From Narcine bancroftii (Eukaryota): a DNA stretch of 64,000 nt. A program made the position numbers and the translations under genes. The notes under the pieces were generated by a model. That model had not been told where the DNA came from. It ran no database searches and worked only from the letters and a program-made list of their open reading frames with translations. This document shows, piece by piece, positions 8,277 to 43,829 of the stretch. The stretch covers positions 205,778,001-205,842,000 of the forward strand of contig NC_091473.1 in NCBI RefSeq assembly GCF_036971445.1, written 5' to 3'. Position 1 is the first letter of the stretch; every line of letters starts with the position of its first letter.

Positions 8277-8605
8277 GTGAGACTGTCTGATTGGTCATTG
8301 ACGTCTAATCATCATCTTTTCTCTATGTTTCTCCAACTTTAACCTAAAGAAAGTTGACAATTCCCCAAAATGTTACCGTCTCCCTCTACGTTCTCGCTCT
8401 GCTTGCTCATTTACATAGCCTGTGTTTATTAAACCTCCTCACGGTTCGTCTGTTTCTCTTCTCTCTCCGTCTCTCGCTCTTGGCTGTTTTCTGGCTTGGG
8501 AAACGGCGACTCAAACAGAGTTTCTGTTGCGTCCGACGTGGGATCGCGCTCTTATATGGTGGAGCATTTGTAAAATATCCTTGCTCCGAAATGAGTCTGT
8601 GCATC

Positions 8606-9367
8606 TGTAATGGAGGATTAAAACCATGTACTCAGATGCTTTTTGCTTATGTGGAACTGACGACACTGGGTCCACACGCAGGTCACCTTACTTTCAGAAC
8701 TAGCAGATGTAATTAAACTCAGCCATGGGGACTTATCTGAAGATACACTTTGAAATGGAATTCCACCGTGAGGCCCAGGGAAAGCAGTTGTCAAATACGA
8801 CACTCTGAAATTGACGTATTGGTCACAACCTGTCTTGCTCAAGAAGTTTTAATGAGTCCTTGTATCTACGAGATAAACCAGGATATCATAGCATCCTGCT
8901 CCATAATAATTAATCTTCTAAATTGTAGAATAGTATGCTCAGCTTTGATTTTGACTGACAAATGTTAGAGGGAGTAAATTGTTTTTGGGGTATAAAAGTC
9001 TGTGGTCCTGCTGCTGAAGTTTAGACTCTCCGAGGGGTGGGAACACCCCTTGTCAAGAAGGAAGAACAGCCAGAGTCCGAGCAACGTCCCGGTCGGGGGA
9101 GGTGGAGAAGCTGCTACCAGCGCCCTGACAACCTACTACAAGTGTGCAGTTGTTGCCTCGCTTCGGCAGTTGGGACCAGTCCAAGCGTTGATAAGTATAG
9201 TTGGGAAGGGCTTGCATATTGTAGTGTGAAATCAGCTTTTGAATTAGTAATAAACATTTGTATAAACTGAACTGCTCTCGGTGTGTATGTCTATTTTCTT
9301 TCGGTAGCTAAAACACTGTGACCAATCTAAAATGAACAAAATGAGAGGTATAAGTTTACCCAAGACA
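8606..9367 (+). repeat. ERV 5' LTR (762 bp)
   Basis: TGTAATGGAGG...CCCAAGACA; TATAAAA at ~8991; AATAAA at ~9249; nearly identical to the 3' LTR. Confidence 0.95.
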
Positions 9368-9369
9368 AT

Positions 9370-9387
9370 TGGCGCTGCGAGCAGGGT
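9370..9387 (+). promoter_or_regulatory. Primer binding site, tRNA-Ser type (TGGCGCTGCGAGCAGGGT)
   Basis: Two nt after the LTR; close to the complement of the 3' end of vertebrate tRNA-Ser(TGA/CGA), recalled from memory. Confidence 0.75.
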
Positions 9388-9397
9388 TGGTCTCAAG

Positions 9398-11188
9398 ATG
9401 TTTCGCCGAAAGAAAGAGGTGAGCCCTGAGCAGTTTTTGATTCCGGGATGGACTTCCAAAGATGATGGGTTTGGCATGCTGGCTAATACCCTGTCTTTGT
9501 TGGGACCACCCATCAGTTGGGATGAAAGGTTAGAACCCTTAAGTGTGCCTCTGGGAGAGCGGGTTGCCACTCTCCTCCGAGAAAGTAAATTTCCAAAAAA
9601 ACGGGGGACGCTGACAGACGGTTTTTGGCTGCTGGCCACAGCCTTACGCCACTCCGTTCAGCGTGAAGTTGAATTAGTTCAGCAGCAGGTAAAGTCTGAA
9701 CATAAGAGAAAACAACTAGAGGAGGAAGTAGAGACTCTGCGACAGCGCTGCTCGATGATGAGCGAAATTGTTAGCACCAGTCAGGATCGTGCCAAAGAAT
9801 GGGAGGATAAGCATGTTCAAACAATTTTCCGTAATATTAAACTCCGGCAACAGCTCTGTGCGAATAAGGAAAAGCAAGGGGTAGAACCTGATCCACACCG
9901 TATTCGTGCCATGATAAGGAATGGCAATGATCCTGATGTAATTGATGATTGGGACGGGAATATCTGGTATGATGATAATGGTAATAATGCAGATACCCCC
10001 CGGCATGTGCCTGGCATACTCCCCTCTCCCTCCGCTGTTCAAGCCCGCCCCGTAAGGCAGCGGACTGTCCAAGCAGATGAAGGCGAGAGGGGGGATGATG
10101 TAAGTGCAGAAACTGAAGGGACCGGTGCTCCGATCTCCCAAGCGGACCCAGGGGAAGGCTCCCAAACCCCTGCTTATGCTAGGTGGGCTCCCCCCTCAAC
10201 GGGATGGTCTCAGCAGCCTCCCATGTGCCAGAGTGGTAACAGGGGTCGGGAGCAGTCAACAACAATACGTGACTTTATAAAAGAGCTGGCCGCCATTGGA
10301 GATCGTTTTAGGCAAAAGACAGGAGAAACTTTGGCGGCCTGGCTTCTGCGGGTTTGGGAGCAAGGGGGAGGTAGCATATATCTGACCCCTGAGGAATTGT
10401 TGGGGTTAGGATCATTAACTACTGATATTCGAGTCACTGCTGAATTACGTGGCAGAAGGAGAGATGTAGACTATTTACTTGCTACTCTAGGAGAAGCCCT
10501 GTTACGGGTGTATCCGTCACCAGTAGATTGGGATCTGCATTTGCAGAACCATTGGGGCACACCAGAGGAGGGTATAGCAGTGATTCGCCAACAGGCCGTG
10601 GCCTCTGCTTTGTATGCGGGGCGCCTGAGGCTGTGGATGCATGGGGGGAGCCCTGATGAAGAATTATTCACAGCTGGAATGCATACCCGATTGGTTCGTT
10701 CAGCCCAACCTACTATACGGGGACTGGTCCTGTCTGTAACTAGTCCGCTAATTGGGCACCTCGTATCTGAGGCGGTGCACGCCCTATCTGGACTCCAAGA
10801 ACTGGAGTTGGGAGGTAAAATCCACTCACGTACAACCCAGGTTAAAGCAGACAGACAGGATGAAAGGAGAGGGGCTGCTGATAATAATGGACTGACCAGA
10901 AAAGAGCTTTTTCTAACTTTGTTAAAGTTAGGCGTACCTAAAAGTGATATTGATGGGAAACCTACTGCAGTCTTGTATGCCCTTTATAAGAGGAAGGCAG
11001 GGGAACATCATCCCCAGATGCTGGGTCCTCCCGGCCCAGCTGTGCCTTCTGCTCCCACTGCTGCTTCTATCGAGTCAGCTTCTCCTGCCCCAGTTACCCG
11101 TGATGAGGTAAAACAATGGGTTAAACAGGCTCTTAAGGATAACAATAGCATGTGGTCCTGGAAACCCCCGAACCCTTCTGAAGCCTGA
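9398..11188 (+). CDS. gag: ERV Gag polyprotein (ERV-L/Fv1-like, no zinc knuckle)
   Basis: Open ORF; the track start at 9332 lies in U5 and the first ATG after the PBS is 9398. ERV-L-type motifs LAAWLLRVWEQGG and LTRKELFLTLLKLGVPKSDIDGKPTAVLYALYK. Confidence 0.9.
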   Translation: MFRRKKEVSPEQFLIPGWTSKDDGFGMLANTLSLLGPPISWDERLEPLSVPLGERVATLLRESKFPKKRGTLTDGFWLLATALRHSVQREVELVQQQVKSEHKRKQLEEEVETLRQRCSMMSEIVSTSQDRAKEWEDKHVQTIFRNIKLRQQLCANKEKQGVEPDPHRIRAMIRNGNDPDVIDDWDGNIWYDDNGNNADTPRHVPGILPSPSAVQARPVRQRTVQADEGERGDDVSAETEGTGAPISQADPGEGSQTPAYARWAPPSTGWSQQPPMCQSGNRGREQSTTIRDFIKELAAIGDRFRQKTGETLAAWLLRVWEQGGGSIYLTPEELLGLGSLTTDIRVTAELRGRRRDVDYLLATLGEALLRVYPSPVDWDLHLQNHWGTPEEGIAVIRQQAVASALYAGRLRLWMHGGSPDEELFTAGMHTRLVRSAQPTIRGLVLSVTSPLIGHLVSEAVHALSGLQELELGGKIHSRTTQVKADRQDERRGAADNNGLTRKELFLTLLKLGVPKSDIDGKPTAVLYALYKRKAGEHHPQMLGPPGPAVPSAPTAASIESASPAPVTRDEVKQWVKQALKDNNSMWSWKPPNPSEA

Positions 11189-13435
11189 AGGTGTGGGCAG
11201 GATTCCCGTGTCTATTCCATCGAGACACGGCGCACACACGGGGATCCGCGGCCCTACATACCATTAACAATTCACTGGGGTGGGGGTAATGATCGCCAAT
11301 ACTTGGCTTTGGTTGACACCGGTGCAGAGCACTCGGTGATTCCTGGTAACCCCGACCTCTGGAACGGACCCACATTTCGAATAGAAGGAATGGGAGGGGC
11401 AATCACCCTGGCAAAGGAAATAAAAGTCCGTGCCACGGTGGGTGATGGCCCTTCCCCCATATGGTTACATGCGTTGGTAGCTGCCACTGACGAGTGTATT
11501 CTGGGTATTAATATGTTGGCCGGTACAGCCCTTAATACTAGCCAAGGGGGGTTTGCATTCGGAATTCGGACTATTACAAAAAGATTAGTGGTGGGTCAGG
11601 CCAAGTGGGATCCCGTGGTGGTGCCACCCCCCTCAAAACCTGTATGCATTCCGCAATATCGCCTCCCTGGAGGGCAGGAGGAGATTACCGCCACCATTGA
11701 TGCTTTGAAAGAAGAAGGGGTAGTGAGGCCTGCAACGTCGCCCTTCAATAGCCCTGTTTGGCCGGTCCAGAAGCTGGACGGCTCCTGGAGAATGACAGTT
11801 GATTATCGTTTTTTGAACAAACATGCCCCACCACTTGCTTCAGCAGTTCCGGACATTGTCACTCTTATTGAAAACATTGCTACTGGGAACTCAGGAACAT
11901 GGTATGCTGTCATTGATCTCGCTAAGGCCTTCTTCAGTATTCTTATAGCTGAGGACTCACAGGATCAGTTCGCCTTTACCTGGAAGGGGCGCCAGTATAC
12001 CTTCACCCACCTTCCAGTATCGCCTTCCCTCTCAATTCACCATTATATTGATGATGTGGCCTCCTGGAGCCTCTGGCAGAAACAAGAGGGTCGCCGAGTC
12101 CCACTAGGATTCTGGTCACGTACCATGCCTGAGGCTGCCACTCGTTATTCTGTTTTTGAACAACAGTTACTAGCCTGTTACTGGGCCCTGCTAGAGACTG
12201 AAAGAATGACAGGTGATGCAGATGTTCAATTGCGACCTGCACTTCCTATAATGAATTGGGTCCTGGCTAATGATGCTAATCTAAAGATCCGGCGGGCTCA
12301 GCAGTCTTCTATTGTTAAATGGAAGTGGTATATTCAGAGTCGTGCGACCAGAGGGCCTGAAGGGGTGGGCCGCATACACGAACAGGTGGCTTACCATCCT
12401 AGGTCAGGAACTCAGTTATCGGAGGAGGGGGATGGTGGCTCCAGTCAGTATGCTGAGTTGAAGGCAGTCACTTTACCACTAGATCCCCATGATCACCCTC
12501 TTCGCCTGTTTGCTGATTCCTGGGCTTTGGCTAATGGACTTGTGGTATGGATGCCTGATTTGCAAAAGAACAACTGGATGATACATGACCGCCCAGTATG
12601 GGGCAAAGAGTTGTGGCAGCTGTTGTGGGATGCTTCCCACCATCGTGAGATAACCGTTTATCACGTTGATGCCCATACCAATATGGCGACTAACATGGCT
12701 CAACATAATGCAGTAGCAGATCAGCTTGCCACTATCAGCTGTGCTGATACCGTCCCCCTGGCTCGATGGGCACATGAACAGAGTGGTCATTTGGGGGAGA
12801 AGGGATCAGCTATGTGGTCCCATACACATGCTTTATCCATCCATAAGGATGATGTCCGCATGGTCATATGTACATGCCCAGAATGTCAGCTTGTGAAGTT
12901 CCATACCGTTCCACCTGGTCCGCATGGCCGAATAAAACGGGGTGCTCACTCAGCTGCGGTCTGGCAAATTGATTACATAGGCCCCATGCTAGACTGCATG
13001 GGTAAATATTACGTCCTAGTAATGGTTGACACCTTTTCGGGCCTGGTTTTTACTTTTCCCACCAAGACGGCTGACCAAGCTAGCACTATCCAAGGACAAA
13101 ACCATTTGATTTATCGTTATGATGTTCCAGAGGAGATTCACTCTGATAATGGCTCGCACTTCTCCGGGAAAGCAATCTGTGATTGGGCAAATGACAACAG
13201 TATTTTATGGGTCCACCATATTCCTTATTACCCGCAGGCTGCCGGGTTAGTTGAACAAATGAACGGCTTACTGAAGGAACAAATTCATTTGTTAACATCA
13301 CTGGGGACCCAGAAGGGATGGTGCCATGTGCTGCAGCAGGCAGTCGACAATTTGAATCATCGCCCTTTAAAAGGAGGTACACCTTTCCACCGACTTCTTC
13401 ACGCTCCTGAATTACAGCCTATTCCAGAGGAATAA
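11189..13435 (+). CDS. pol: ERV Pro-Pol (PR, internally deleted RT/RNase H, integrase), in frame with gag after the TGA
   Basis: LALVDTGAE; SPFNSPVWPVQKLDGSWRMTVDYR; HYIDD; SSQYAELKAV; HHCC (WAHEQSGH..CPEC); WQIDYIGP / SDNGSHF / GLVEQMNG. A likely integrase C-terminal segment continues in frame at 13436-13624 after a TAA. Confidence 0.9.
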   Translation, partial: RCGQDSRVYSIETRRTHGDPRPYIPLTIHWGGGNDRQYLALVDTGAEHSVIPGNPDLWNGPTFRIEGMGGAITLAKEIKVRATVGDGPSPIWLHALVAATDECILGINMLAGTALNTSQGGFAFGIRTITKRLVVGQAKWDPVVVPPPSKPVCIPQYRLPGGQEEITATIDALKEEGVVRPATSPFNSPVWPVQKLDGSWRMTVDYRFLNKHAPPLASAVPDIVTLIENIATGNSGTWYAVIDLAKAFFSILIAEDSQDQFAFTWKGRQYTFTHLPVSPSLSIHHYIDDVASWSLWQKQEGRRVPLGFWSRTMPEAATRYSVFEQQLLACYWALLETERMTGDADVQLRPALPIMNWVLANDANLKIRRAQQSSIVKWKWYIQSRATRGPEGVGRIHEQVAYHPRSGTQLSEEGDGGSSQYAELKAVTLPLDPHDHPLRLFADSWALANGLVVWMPDLQKNNWMIHDRPVWGKELWQLLWDASHHREITVYHVDAHTNMATNMAQHNAVADQLATISCADTVPLARWAHEQSGHLGEKGSAMWSHTHALSIHKDDVRMVICTCPECQLVKFHTVPPGPHGRIKRGAHSAAVWQIDYIGPMLDCMGKYYVLVMVDTFSGLVFTFPTKTADQASTIQGQNHLIYRYDVPEEIHSDNGSHFSGKAICDWANDNSILWVHHIPYYPQAAGLVEQMNGLLKEQIHLLTSLGTQKGWCHVLQQAVDNLNHRPLKGGTPFHRLLHAPELQPIPEE

Positions 13436-13625
13436 CAGTCAATGCCCCCCATCCCCGAACTAGAGAATGTTGGACAAAAAGTATGGGTGGCACCACCAGG
13501 TAGTGGCCCTCCTGTAAAAGGGGAAATAGTGACACCTGCCCAGGGTAACACTCGGTGGGTAGCTATTGAGGGACAGGATGATTTAGTCTGTTTAAACACT
13601 GAACGCTTATGGTATCGTGAGTGAC

Positions 13626-14048
13626 ATGTGTCAGGCTTCTTTGTTCCAGGTTCTCCATTTTACACTCCTGGTGATCTGGCTTAACAGCTGCTTTGATGCC
13701 AGCAATTGGATTTGTAATGTCGAGGACGTTCCAAGGGAGTTCCCAGTGGGAAACACGGTCCGATGCATTACACCAAGGAAGTCCTCGGTCACCAGCCTCA
13801 AGTGCAGCTTATATAAATATGTTATTGTTCAGCATGTTTCAAAATCTGTTCGTGAGCTCCAGTATCTGGGTATTGTGGCCAACAAGGATAATTTGAGCCT
13901 TGGTTGGAATCCTTTCTCATGGCTAACTGCTACATTTGGGGGAGTGGGCCACAATATCCTCCGTTGGTTGCTCGCGTCATTGCTTATCTTTGTAATTGTT
14001 GTTTTGATTTCTCTTTTTTCGCTCCCTCTGTACTCAAATACTGGTTAG
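13626..14048 (+). CDS. env: Miniature env remnant (signal peptide, short Cys-containing ectodomain, membrane-proximal and TM region)
   Basis: Lies between pol and the polypurine tract; hydrophobic N-terminus; WNPFSWLTATFGG then LLASLLIFVIVVLISLF; splice acceptor TTCTTTGTTCCAG ends at 13649. Confidence 0.7.
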   Translation: MCQASLFQVLHFTLLVIWLNSCFDASNWICNVEDVPREFPVGNTVRCITPRKSSVTSLKCSLYKYVIVQHVSKSVRELQYLGIVANKDNLSLGWNPFSWLTATFGGVGHNILRWLLASLLIFVIVVLISLFSLPLYSNTG

Positions 14049-14073
14049 GCCTCGCAAATGACAGATTGTGACC

Positions 14074-14084
14074 AAGGGGTGGAA
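14074..14084 (+). promoter_or_regulatory. Polypurine tract (AAGGGGTGGAA)
   Basis: Immediately 5' of the 3' LTR. Confidence 0.75.
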
Positions 14085-14857
14085 TGTAATGGAGGATTAA
14101 AACCATGTACTCAGATGCTTTTTGCTTATGTGGAACTGACGACACTGGGTCCACACGCAGGTCACCTTACTTTCAGAACTAGCAGATGTAATTAAACTCA
14201 GCCATGGGGACTTATCTGAAGATACACTTTGAAATGGAATTCCACCGTGAGGCCCAGGGAAAGCAGTTGTCAAATACGACACTCTGAAATTGACGTATTG
14301 GTCACAACCTGTCTTGCTCAAGAAGTTTTAATGAGTCCTTGTATCTACGAGATAAACCAGGATATCATAGCATCCTGCTCCATAATAATTAATCTTCTAA
14401 ATTGTAGAATAGTATGCTCAGCTTTGATTTTGACTGACAAATGTTAGAGGGAGTGGGTGCATGATTAATTGTTTTTGGGGTATAAAAGTCTGTGGTCCTG
14501 CTGCTGAAGTTTAGACTCTCCGAGGGGTGGGAACACCCCTTGTCAAGAAGGAAGAACAGCCAGAGTCCGAGCAACGTCCCGGTCGGGGGAGGTGGAGAAG
14601 CTGCTACCAGCGCCCTGACAACCTACTACAAGTGTGCAGTTGTTGCCTCGCTTCGGCAGTTGGGACCAGTCCAAGCGTTGATAAGTATAGTTGGGAAGGG
14701 CTTGCATATTGTAGTGTGAAATCAGCTTTTGAATTAGTAATAAACATTTGTATAAACTGAACTGCTCTCGGTGTGTATGTCTATTTTCTTTCGGTAGCTA
14801 AAACACTGTGACCAATCTAAAATGAACAAAATGAGAGGTATAAGTTTACCCAAGACA
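14085..14857 (+). repeat. ERV 3' LTR (773 bp)
   Basis: Matches the 5' LTR except a net 11-bp indel near 14455-14466. Confidence 0.95.
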
Positions 14858-14862
14858 GCATC

Positions 14863-40069: not shown

Positions 40070-40763
40070 TGTCCTGGGTAAATTTGTACCTCGCATTTCG
40101 TTCGTTTTAGATTGGTCAATGTTTGAGCTACTGAAAGAAAATAGACACACACTCCGAGAGCACTTCATTTTATACAAATCTTCATTACAAATTCTAAATC
40201 TGATATCAAACTAAAATATTCAAGCCCTTGCCAATTATACCTATCAACACCTGGACTGGTCCCAACTGTCGAAGCGAGTCAATGACCGTAGCAGGTTGTC
40301 GGGGCGCCTGCTTCTCCACCTCCCCTGGCTGGACTCTAGAAGTTCTTCTTCTTGCTGAGAGATGTTGCCACCTCTCGGAGCGTCTCAAACTTCAGCAGCG
40401 GGACCATGGCTTATATTACCCCAAAACTGCACACACAAGCACCTATTCCCAGCACAGAAAGAAAGACAAGCAGGCAAGCAAGCATGCCTAGGCTTCTATC
40501 GAATAACATGATTTTCAGCTTACCGCTTTGGATACAATGGTTTATTGTGCATTAGTGTTAGGCCTCCGACAGTCTGTGACCAAAACAAGCAGGAAGATTA
40601 AATGTTCTTGGGACACAGATATCCTTTCGTCAGATAACTGCATCTCTGGCCCCTCGGTGGAATTTAGCTTATGTCTGCTGATTCTTAACAACAAGCAGGT
40701 TCTCAGCCTTGCAGAAGCAAAGGATGTAAAAGTAAAAACACATGGTCTAAATCTTCGATTACA
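40070..40763 (-). mobile_element. Solo LTR of the same ERV family
   Basis: Minus strand reads TGTAATCGAAGATTTAGACC...ACCCAGGACA; flanks TACCC/TAGCC; absent from the paralog at ~61.36 kb. Confidence 0.8.
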
Positions 40764-41475: not shown

Positions 41476-42129
41476 TGTAATGGAGGATTTAGACCAGCTT
41501 ATGCAAGAAGGGATGCAGTTGCATCAGAAGACATAATCTAAACTCCACCATGGGGCACAGTGATGCAGTTGAATAGGAAGACATAATCTAATTTACACCA
41601 TGACGCCCAGGATGCATATGAATTAGTAGACACATCTAAATTCCACCGTGAGATCCAGGGATGCAGTTTTATTTTGTTGGTCGCAGACTGTCAGGAGACC
41701 TTGAAGATAATTAAATAATTTCTTCAAAGAGATAGGCTATGAGTAAACAATTTATTGGGTAATATAAGCCATGGTCCCACTGCTGAAATGTTGACTCTCT
41801 GAGTTGTGGAAACGTCTCTCAGCAAGAAGAACGTCTAGAGTTCTGTTTACATCATGGACGGGGAAGGTGGAGAAGCTGCTACCCGCGCCCTGACAACCTA
41901 CAAGTGTGCGGTCATAGCCTTGCTTCGGTAGTTGGGACCATTCCAGGCATTGATAAGTATAATTGGGAAGGGCTTGCATATTGTAGTTTGAAATCAGCTT
42001 TTGAATTTGTAATAAACATTTGTATAAACTGAACATCTCCCAGTGTGGGTGTCTATTTTCTTTCAGTAGCTCGAACACTGTGACCAATCTAAAACGAACA
42101 AAGTGAGAGGTACAAGTTTACCCAGGACA
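41476..42129 (+). mobile_element. Solo LTR of the same ERV family
   Basis: TGTAATGGAGGATTT...ACCCAGGACA; R/U5 similar to 9000-9367; empty site at ~62033. Confidence 0.85.
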
Positions 42130-43829
42130 ACAGACTGCATCTTCTATTTGTAATACAGCCATCTTTTCAGTTTGAAGAAAGTGTGACACTTGTCCACAGC
42201 ACTTCTGTTTTGTTGTTGCATCATATGTTCTACATATTGTCTGTTAATTTGCCTGTATTTCAGAAAAGACAATATTATTTACTACGTATCAACAGAAATG
42301 GCAACGAAAAACTCAAAGTTTTAATTTATGTTATCTGCCATTTGAGAGCCAGGAGGATAATATAAATAAAAATGCACCAGCAATCATCCTTGAAGAACCT
42401 TTTGAATATGTGGCATTCTGATTTGAAATGAGTCTGGCCTAATAATATAAGGATCAGTTTAATTGCAATAGATGCTTCAGAAACTTCCATCGATTTAAAG
42501 GTTTCTGGATCAACACATTAACCAGCACTGAAAATCAAATATGCTGGAAAAAGGTATTTAATTTAATTTGGCTTACTACTCCGTGCTATATTATGTGCTA
42601 TCTTCTCGAATGCACAGCGCTTAAATCCGAACAGTAAAGAATCCAAGTATCAAGTGAATAAACACACCTTTAAAAGATCAATAGCGTGATTCATTGGGAA
42701 GCTTATATTATTCACGTGATCCTAGCATTATATCATTAACATTATATGAGACACGATCAAGTCCGGTGAAAATAAACTGGCCATATTTGAGTTAACCACC
42801 ATGTTCACCAAGCATAAGAAGTGAAATATTAAATGTAATGAGGCCAGTTCGGGCGAATATAATGGCAACGTCATTTGTAAAACCATTAACAAAATCTAGA
42901 ATAAACCGGAGAATACAGGCTGAAAGGATGACAAGCAGGTGTAAAACTATGAACGGAGCTGCTGCTTTTGATGGGAAAACTTTCATCGAAAGAGTGAAAA
43001 ATGCCTTTGCAGTGGAACATGATATATGGACTATCCACTTCAAAAGCGCCAGTGTGAGATGAAGAATGACCGGGCCAACTATTAGAAGGTCTATTTAATA
43101 ATAAATGGCGGATTAACTTAAATAATGCGAAACGTGCAAAATACACAGGGACTAAAGGATGAGCCCTCGGCATGCTATTCCATATGGTAATACTGGTCAC
43201 ATCTGCTATAATGTCGACCACAGGGTCTTATTGGGGCAAGAGAGCATCAAGTGAGAGGCCCGAGTGCATTTGGGGATGAGTATGACAAAAGTGCAACTTC
43301 AGATAAATTGTGCGAAGCGACTCTTAGCATCTTTGCTACTTAGACCCACATGCATCTTGGTGACATTAGTTAACTTTTGCATATTATTCCTGGCCTTATT
43401 ACACCTATTGTAGGGATAAGTGAACAACTTGATGCAAAAGAGATCATGAATCGAAAACATATATTTTCAGATTTATGTGTTGGTGAATGATATGCCATTC
43501 CCGTACAGTACACAAACTTATGCGCCAACAGAACACCATTTCCCCGTTATTTGAGCCAATGATTAGGCTTTTATATTATTCCAGTTATTCAAGTAAAGCA
43601 CACAATATATTTCCTCAGCGCGATTCAAATTTCACATATCCGTGTGCTGAAATAGTGGAGTTCAGTTGATGAGAAATGAGCCCTTGTCATCTCGAAGTTT
43701 TAGCACAATATTGAAAGGTGGGAGTGAATGAAAGGCTGCTAGTTGAACGGCACGTCGCATGACGGGGCTTCGGTAAAGTAAAGAAAAATAAAGAAAGGGA
43801 AAGTAAAATAAAGATAAAGAAGTAAGAAA

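Follow-up and report, generated by a model that had tools for sequence, protein, structure and literature searches.

Evidence for splicing of the gag start to a probable env remnant in a class III endogenous retrovirus family of the ray Narcine bancroftii

Alpharetroviruses begin their Env protein with the first codons of gag, and a 6,252-bp provirus in the genome of Narcine bancroftii raises the question of whether a class III endogenous retrovirus (ERV) does the same, and whether the very small Env protein that would result is anything more than a remnant. The provirus (8606-14857), which ends in TG...CA, lies in a window of 64,000 nt (the whole stretch of contig NC_091473.1 analysed here, to the first letter of which all positions refer). 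All the proviral features described are on the forward strand.

Structure, age and class of the provirus

Identical 5-mers beside the LTRs form a 5-bp target-site duplication (left copy 8601..8605, right copy 14858-14862). Comparison of the LTRs defined a 762-bp 5' LTR (8606..9367; TG...CA, TATA at 8991, AATAAA at 9249) and a 773-bp 3' LTR (14085..14857; AATAAA at 14739). They differ in no substitution, a single 11-nt indel being the sole difference, and the insertion is therefore very young. An 18-nt primer binding site (9370..9387), starting with TGG 2 nt past the LTR end, is presumably tRNA-Ser-like, and a polypurine tract occupies 14074..14084. The leader between the 5' LTR and the gag ATG at 9398 comprises 30 nt.

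The gag ORF (9398..11188; 596 aa) ends with TGA and encodes an MHR-type motif at residue 306, with neither a Cys-His box nor Gly2; a comparison of Gag with Pfam gave no significant family. The pro-pol region (11189..13435) continues in the gag frame after the TGA, carries the protease motif DTG and ends at a stop at 13433, which is apparently common to a contig in sequencing run X9. The Pfam families RVP, RVT_1, RT_RNaseH, RNase_H and rve were all found in this one frame, RT and RNase H being partial and the protease and integrase core lying in the same ORF. Divergence from longer copies in DNA runs revealed internal pol deletions near 12012 and 12058 (RT) and near 12391 (RNase H). All three of these large deletions preserve the frame, and a single ORF runs through to the integrase core. 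The 62 open codons past the pol stop (13436..13624) have no Pfam match; they are probably a cut-off integrase C-terminal domain. RT, RNase H and IN are broken in this provirus.

Third codon positions account for 24 of the 39 variable sites in gag (p ~0.0003) and 14 of the 21 in pol (p ~0.002), counted on the 61 variable sites among the best-supported rows (a further 552 and 466 rows lie outside the count). This excess is compatible with purifying selection on gag and pol in the history of the family. The env exon described below holds just one of the 61 sites and thus permits no inference on env selection. Most family copies in runs X1 and X6 differ from the window gag by many substitutions and some have gag deletions; compared with these two runs, the open-gag type of the window is a minority subfamily.

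By the ranking of PDB matches and by its architecture, the provirus resembles a class III (ERV-S/XtERV-S-like) ERV, in agreement with the class assigned in the original prediction. The best PDB sequence matches of pol were foamy virus IN and PR-RT, and such entries (PFV integrase, Pr125Pol and others) took the top 13 places among 145 matches. Class III traits present here are the 5-bp target-site duplication, a stop separating gag from pol within a shared frame, and an MHR without a Cys-His box. ERV-L proper was rejected because an env-derived exon is present and a dUTPase match is absent (no Pfam match in pol or in the segment beyond it, although a deletion could conceal one). No relative of the element appeared in scans of viral and metagenome contigs. 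Close protein matches came exclusively from Narcine bancroftii, an electric ray; the host, which had been predicted to be a fish, is thus likely a cartilaginous fish, either this species or one closely related to it. As the best reading, we regard the provirus as a replication-defective, very young copy of a multicopy non-autonomous derivative.

The combination of class III Pol with gamma-type Env is already known in anamniotes, according to the available text of bioRxiv 10.1101/2021.11.23.469661. In the text available for XtERV-S of Xenopus tropicalis (PMC8278194), this element and mammalian ERV-S are, like the provirus, class III in gag-pol with a gamma-type TM. XtERV-S also has a TGA between gag and pol, which share a frame, an MHR without a Cys-His box, a 5-bp target-site duplication, deleted non-autonomous copies and a Ser-type primer binding site (the last likeness depending on our assumed assignment in the window). 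It differs in its leader (158 bp vs 30 nt in the window provirus) and in dUTPase, none being detected with Pfam in the window provirus. Its Env is described as initiating at a start of its own, which overlaps the stop of pol, and as having a signal peptide of 19 aa; the donor is predicted to lie in the LTR (PMC8278194). The window exon has no ATG, and the donor observed there lies inside gag.

Probable splicing from the gag start to the env exon

The ATG at 9398 is followed, after 21 coding nt, by the phase-0 donor GTGAGC at 9419, as originally predicted. In the spliced env RNA, the coding sequence of exon 1 consists of these first seven gag codons (9398..9418); four of the seven residues are basic and they form a predicted signal n-region. 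Scored with a crude matrix of vertebrate frequencies, the donor ranks first among 347 GT sites, and the acceptor ending at 13649 ranks second among 353 AG sites, which bears out the strong in-phase acceptor that had been claimed. The pyrimidine tract and acceptor AG occupy 13626..13649, and an env-frame ATG at 13626 lies inside the spliced-out segment. The intron itself (9419..13649; 4,231 nt, GT..AG, phase 0) is defined by the joint found in presumed RNA runs. For the higher-scoring acceptor at 13237, no joint was found among the best 15 of the 17 joints listed in these runs.

Eight of 13 listed runs were compared, namely four presumed RNA runs (X4, X7, X8 and X9; four samples from one study, their RNA status being a guess) and four controls. 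Two of the controls, X1 (6,488 contigs placed) and X6 (1,951), are deep DNA runs, and two are weak: X10 with 17 contigs placed, and X11 with a share of 0.06, 5 contigs and env uncovered. Contig depths are treated here as rough indications that do not measure copy number. A 4,231-nt skip at 9418|13650 was present in all four presumed RNA runs, at depths of 63, 239, 58 and 73. Its ends were called GT..AG in X7, X8 and X9; in X4 a skip of the same length is shifted 3 nt to the left with its ends uncalled. This joint is absent from the 10 joints listed for X1, X6, X10 and X11. The RNA junction proposed as a check was thus recovered in 4/4 presumed RNA runs and 0/4 controls, at the level of the family: at position 13745 a letter other than that of the window makes up all the depth in X4, X7 and X9 and 3,338 of 4,336 in X8, so the evidence of transcription applies to the family and not to the window locus. 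The junction contigs have 26-40 nt on their short side, too short to tell a mini-env from a long env downstream.

Alternatively, some genomic copies might carry the joint as a deletion in their DNA or as a spliced form that was retro-copied, and the presumed RNA runs would then be DNA. The guessed RNA status, the origin of all these runs in one study, the loss of rare variants from contigs and the comparison of one of the four DNA runs of sample S1 leave some room for this reading, but we consider it highly improbable. The joint ends GT..AG at the top-ranked donor; it is unlisted in X1 and X6, whose listed joints (depth 5-32) include no GT..AG; and in host gene models the acceptor is joined to different donors.

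These NCBI models of Narcine bancroftii genes switch to the env exon exactly at its residue 1 in P0002 (an HSPBAP1 isoform), P0003 (NKAIN3-like) and P0006 (uncharacterised). The NKAIN3-like isoforms P0062 and P0064 use the env acceptor as well, whereas isoform P0063 carries on with the usual NKAIN sequence at the point where P0003 enters the env exon. The env-exon ends of the HSPBAP1, NKAIN3-like and P0006 models are predicted to add a membrane anchor to the host protein or to truncate it. A strong phase-0 acceptor in front of an in-frame TM exon is a potential gene trap in the Narcine genome.

Two ATGs in U5, at 9332 and 9341 (9332..9343), share the gag frame, which stays open from them to 9398, and could add 22 and 19 residues, respectively, in the window copy. 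They had been overlooked in the original prediction, as had the ATG in the env frame at 13626 and the shift of frame beyond the TM helix described below. It is possible, though we think it unlikely, that the splice is real but that its product differs or is not made, since the ATGs at 9287 (which opens a 6-codon uORF), 9332 and 9341 would be met first and would give a 161- or 158-aa form or little protein. All four leader ATGs are in the gag frame, and those at 9332 and 9341 have A at -3 just like 9398. However, of the two other LTR pieces in the window, both lack the ATG at 9332 and one lacks that at 9341, and the gag start of XtERV-S in a published primer has the same first two residues as that at 9398 (PMC8278194). 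A longer leader would, moreover, still be Gag-frame priming. The same primer (PMC8278194 Table 1) contains a phase-0 AG|GT after eight codons, at a place matching the window donor, which we note as a lead.

Other joints in the presumed RNA runs include a 4.25-kb deletion form from 9594 to 13845 (X4, X9) and, in X8, short skips in R-U5 (9183-9312), some beginning with GT. The depth of the env exon exceeded that of gag-pol in presumed RNA and not in DNA; this was left unused because contig depth cannot rank parts of a gene.

Alpharetroviruses provide a parallel to this arrangement. Their Env shares six gag codons, and the common N-terminus of Gag and Env was reportedly described by Ficht in 1984. 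They have a class II backbone, a Trp primer binding site and a long signal peptide with no need of gag residues for its n-region. In the window provirus, by contrast, seven gag residues directly precede the hydrophobic core, and pol is foamy/ERV-L-like. RSV/ALV and the window family have in common a major donor a few codons inside gag, so that Env and Gag share an N-terminus, as is predicted for the window. In RSV this donor is located at nt 397, just past the gag start (PMC7291142, PMC5035971, available text). A donor inside gag, in phase with env and used in presumed RNA, is present in the window family; the donor and the joint support the ALV/RSV-like Gag-primed start that had been proposed, in which translation would begin at the gag AUG. 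With the splice evidence, Gag-primed expression of Env reaches beyond the class II alpharetroviruses to a class III lineage of a cartilaginous fish. The literature searched, which consisted of main texts with few subscription papers, yielded no description of Gag-primed Env for class III ERVs. The start of Env is not addressed in the available text for SnRV (PMC12193657) or in that of a review of gamma-type Envs (PMC9967133), and the spliced mRNA of Ovex1 is described as holding only the third ORF (PMC2717909, available text).

Anatomy and origin of the mini-Env

The env exon (13650-14048) has 132 open codons and no ATG, and together with the seven gag codons it gives by arithmetic the 139-aa product that had been announced. 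Hydropathy agrees with the predicted signal core and TM helix: exon residues 1-11 are hydrophobic (KD window-11 mean 2.37), and a TM helix spans residues ~105-124 (about 13962-14021; KD window-19 mean up to 2.79). The first part of the exon (residues 1-54; 13650..13811) comprises the hydrophobic signal core and a likely SU N-terminus. The second part (13812..14048) comprises the C-terminal heptad of TM, a Trp-rich membrane-proximal segment, the TM helix and an 8-residue tail. Single-sequence AlphaFold models were of low confidence (pLDDT 37.8 and 56.5), the TM helix alone being confident.

The two parts appear to have different origins within env. Residues 58-123 are 82-85% identical over 66 aa to the C-terminal part of TM in the long Narcine Envs P0004 and P0005. 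Residues 1-54 align from the start with the 493-aa Env P0007 of the stingray Hemitrygon, with three Cys in register. The start-anchored score of 24.5 was the best among 55 long Envs (the others: mean -7.3, SD 7.9, max 9.5) and was reached by 12 of 5000 shuffles, in a test picked after the alignment had been viewed; an unanchored (local) test confined to the mature part did not reach significance (421 of 5000 shuffles). Given the post-hoc choice of the former test and the outcome of the latter, SU origin of residues 1-54 is likely, not certain. Judged from these alignments, the exon is an Env chimaera in which ~54 residues from the signal/SU side are fused in frame to the C-terminal half of TM. 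On the P0007 mapping, ~355 codons were lost from env, in frame, and with them the furin site, fusion peptide, ISD and CX6CC; the large env deletion that had been postulated is thus substantiated. The N-heptad is also gone, and ~37 mature SU residues are left. Just past the TM helix, in a T-run near 14011-14017, the frame is shifted relative to the long Envs, and a sequence like their basic tail sits in another frame downstream of the helix.

The long Envs P0005 (Narcine) and P0007 (Hemitrygon) carry CWxC, a furin site, ISD, CX6CC and a basic tail, and P0004 (Narcine) carries a furin site with CX6CC and a basic tail. No furin-type motif, CWxC, ISD or CX6CC was found in the mini-Env exon, so the predicted lack of a furin site and fusion peptide stands, the latter being among the lost codons. 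The features of a functional gamma-type Env (CXXC, furin site, fusion peptide, ISD, CX6CC) are all absent from it. An N-x-S/T sequon which precedes the heptad in all three long Envs is absent from the exon too. With the furin site, fusion peptide, N-heptad, ISD and CX6CC gone, the mini-Env cannot act as a class I fusogen.

The annotated P0007 has a Met of its own, placed at the hydrophobic core. Env exons without an ATG are missed or annotated from an internal Met, like P0004 and P0005, which lack signal peptides, and screens for intact ERV env genes can therefore undercount such families. Ahead of the usual CWxC region, residues 20-115 of P0007 form an additional Cys-rich module that closes with a second furin-type site; the mini-Env seems to keep only the first third of this module. 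The idea of an Ig-like fold was dropped, the N-terminus of P0007 pointing only to TLV_coat clusters in the ESM Atlas. The exon itself matched none of the Pfam families, TLV_coat included, and gave no usable match in the ESM Atlas. None of 18 candidates scored in a search of proteins of mini-Env length.

The sORF2/FAST proteins (bioRxiv 10.1101/2025.03.14.642691, available text) are, like the mini-Env, small single-pass proteins of LTR elements without a working Env. The mini-Env differs from them in its clear Env descent and in lacking a myristoylation motif and a polybasic tail. Assignment to this group (MGxxxS/T, an ectodomain of 10-50 aa and at least 3 K/R after TM) was rejected, since the mini-Env has no Gly2 and no K/R in its 8-residue tail and its ectodomain is too long.

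Remnant, selected element gene or host gene

We favour, with a probability of about 60%, the reading that in this class III ERV family a donor located seven codons into gag is spliced to the acceptor of env and that the ~139-aa membrane-anchored product is likely an unselected by-product or expressed remnant. The LTR transcript would be spliced at 9418|13650, for which there is family-level evidence in presumed RNA, and translated from the gag AUG. The signal peptide would be composite, with a basic n-region contributed by the seven gag residues and a hydrophobic core contributed by the start of the exon. Type I insertion into the ER is predicted, with ~85-90 luminal residues, one N-glycosylation sequon, the TM helix and the 8-residue tail. 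The splice route may have come from an envelope-competent progenitor, the ~355-codon deletion having spared the acceptor at one end of env and the PPT-proximal end at the other. Such a deletion would be expected when an ERV turns to helper-driven spread, and the element probably spread with a helper; degradation of env accompanying intragenomic spread has been described (PMC10536682, available text). On the best reading, a class III lineage has an alpharetrovirus-like route of Env expression, which its multicopy non-autonomous derivative has inherited. Since protein searches found no annotated long Env or mini-Env beginning with gag residues, we infer its inheritance from a full virus.

The survival of the mini-Env frame had been taken as a hint of function. 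With no substitution between the LTRs, no decay is expected yet, and the intact frame is uninformative in this respect. Counting against a mere remnant, all four large deletions (three in pol, one in env) keep the frame, which would occur by chance about once in 81 if they were independent. As the pol deletions are included, frame keeping is not specific to env but characterises the element as a whole. Random frameshifts in sister copies and a lack of spliced reads had been named as evidence against the idea. Spliced contigs exist, and in this part the idea stands. Some sister forms do shift the frame: two of the three other env deletion joints in DNA run X1 are out of frame (net -38 nt; depth 9-14 within an overall 9-19), the third being net -78 nt, and P0006 shifts frame at the deletion junction. 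One of the out-of-frame joints also occurs in three of the four presumed RNA runs (depths 171, 133 and 70, like the splice joint). On the side of selection, the full 132 codons are retained in both P0002 and P0003, each of which has 2 substitutions. Contigs covering 13860-14084 and 13853-14084 carry the shifted tail with 1 difference and no gap, at depths of 385 in X6 (DNA) and 1,149 in X9 (presumed RNA), and the in-frame mini-Env with shifted tail looks like the common form. A contig of X10 (organism C) over the deletion junction and tail (1 difference, depth 6) was not counted as a second species, carry-over being possible.

The product had been suggested to be a restriction factor, an immunomodulator or only a remnant. 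The last is the likeliest of these options. Immunomodulation through the ISD is excluded by its deletion, and restriction by receptor interference is unlikely with most of SU deleted. Domestication of the mini-Env by the host for restriction or immunomodulation, as with Fv-4 and further env genes that were co-opted, seems to us very unlikely. It would be in line with the spliced presumed RNA, with the use of the exon as the end of several host gene models and with the insertion among antigen-receptor V segments. The identical LTRs, the many copies, the intact gag and the loss of the ISD and most of SU speak against it, and no homolog of the mini form outside Narcine was found in protein searches.

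Selection might also have acted at the level of the element. The SFFV gp55 protein starts at its own AUG. Its virus resembles the provirus in being defective, with deletions in structural genes, an in-frame SU-TM fusion without a cleavage site and a post-TM frameshift leaving a tail of a few residues, a likeness of anatomy only (PMC3185572, available text). In a gp55-like role, the uncleaved and tailless mini-Env would bind a host membrane protein or a helper Env through its TM/membrane-proximal region and so aid the spread of the subfamily. We regard this as possible but doubtful. Both lesions of gp55 are present here (in-frame loss of the SU/TM cleavage site, post-TM frameshift with a short new tail), the mini form is multicopy and found in presumed RNA, and out-of-frame joints are of low depth in DNA. 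However, gp55 is much larger, retains the whole N-terminal domain of SU (vs the ~37 residues here) and has a proven target (PMC3185572). The dead pol also carries in-frame deletions, one master copy could explain the common form without selection, and the exon has 1/61 of the listed variable sites. If such selection were true, the mini-Env would be a natural germline parallel to SFFV gp55. We are similarly sceptical of a wider scenario, in which an ERV-S-like lineage of rays uses gag to make the signal peptide of its Env (perhaps ancestrally in ERV-S) and has independently reached a selected, amplified gp55-like mini-Env that is spliced onto host genes as a membrane-anchoring last exon.

As to the genomic surroundings, the flanks contain V-set segments resembling T-cell receptor V genes (Pfam); a scan for RSS motifs found nothing. 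The provirus lies inside a tandem V-set array (window 4400-35500) with duplicated blocks of ~9.5 kb and several segments that are apparently broken. Two further LTR pieces of the same family, at 41476-42130 and about 40070-40426 (-), are 79-82% identical to the provirus LTR and apparently solo.
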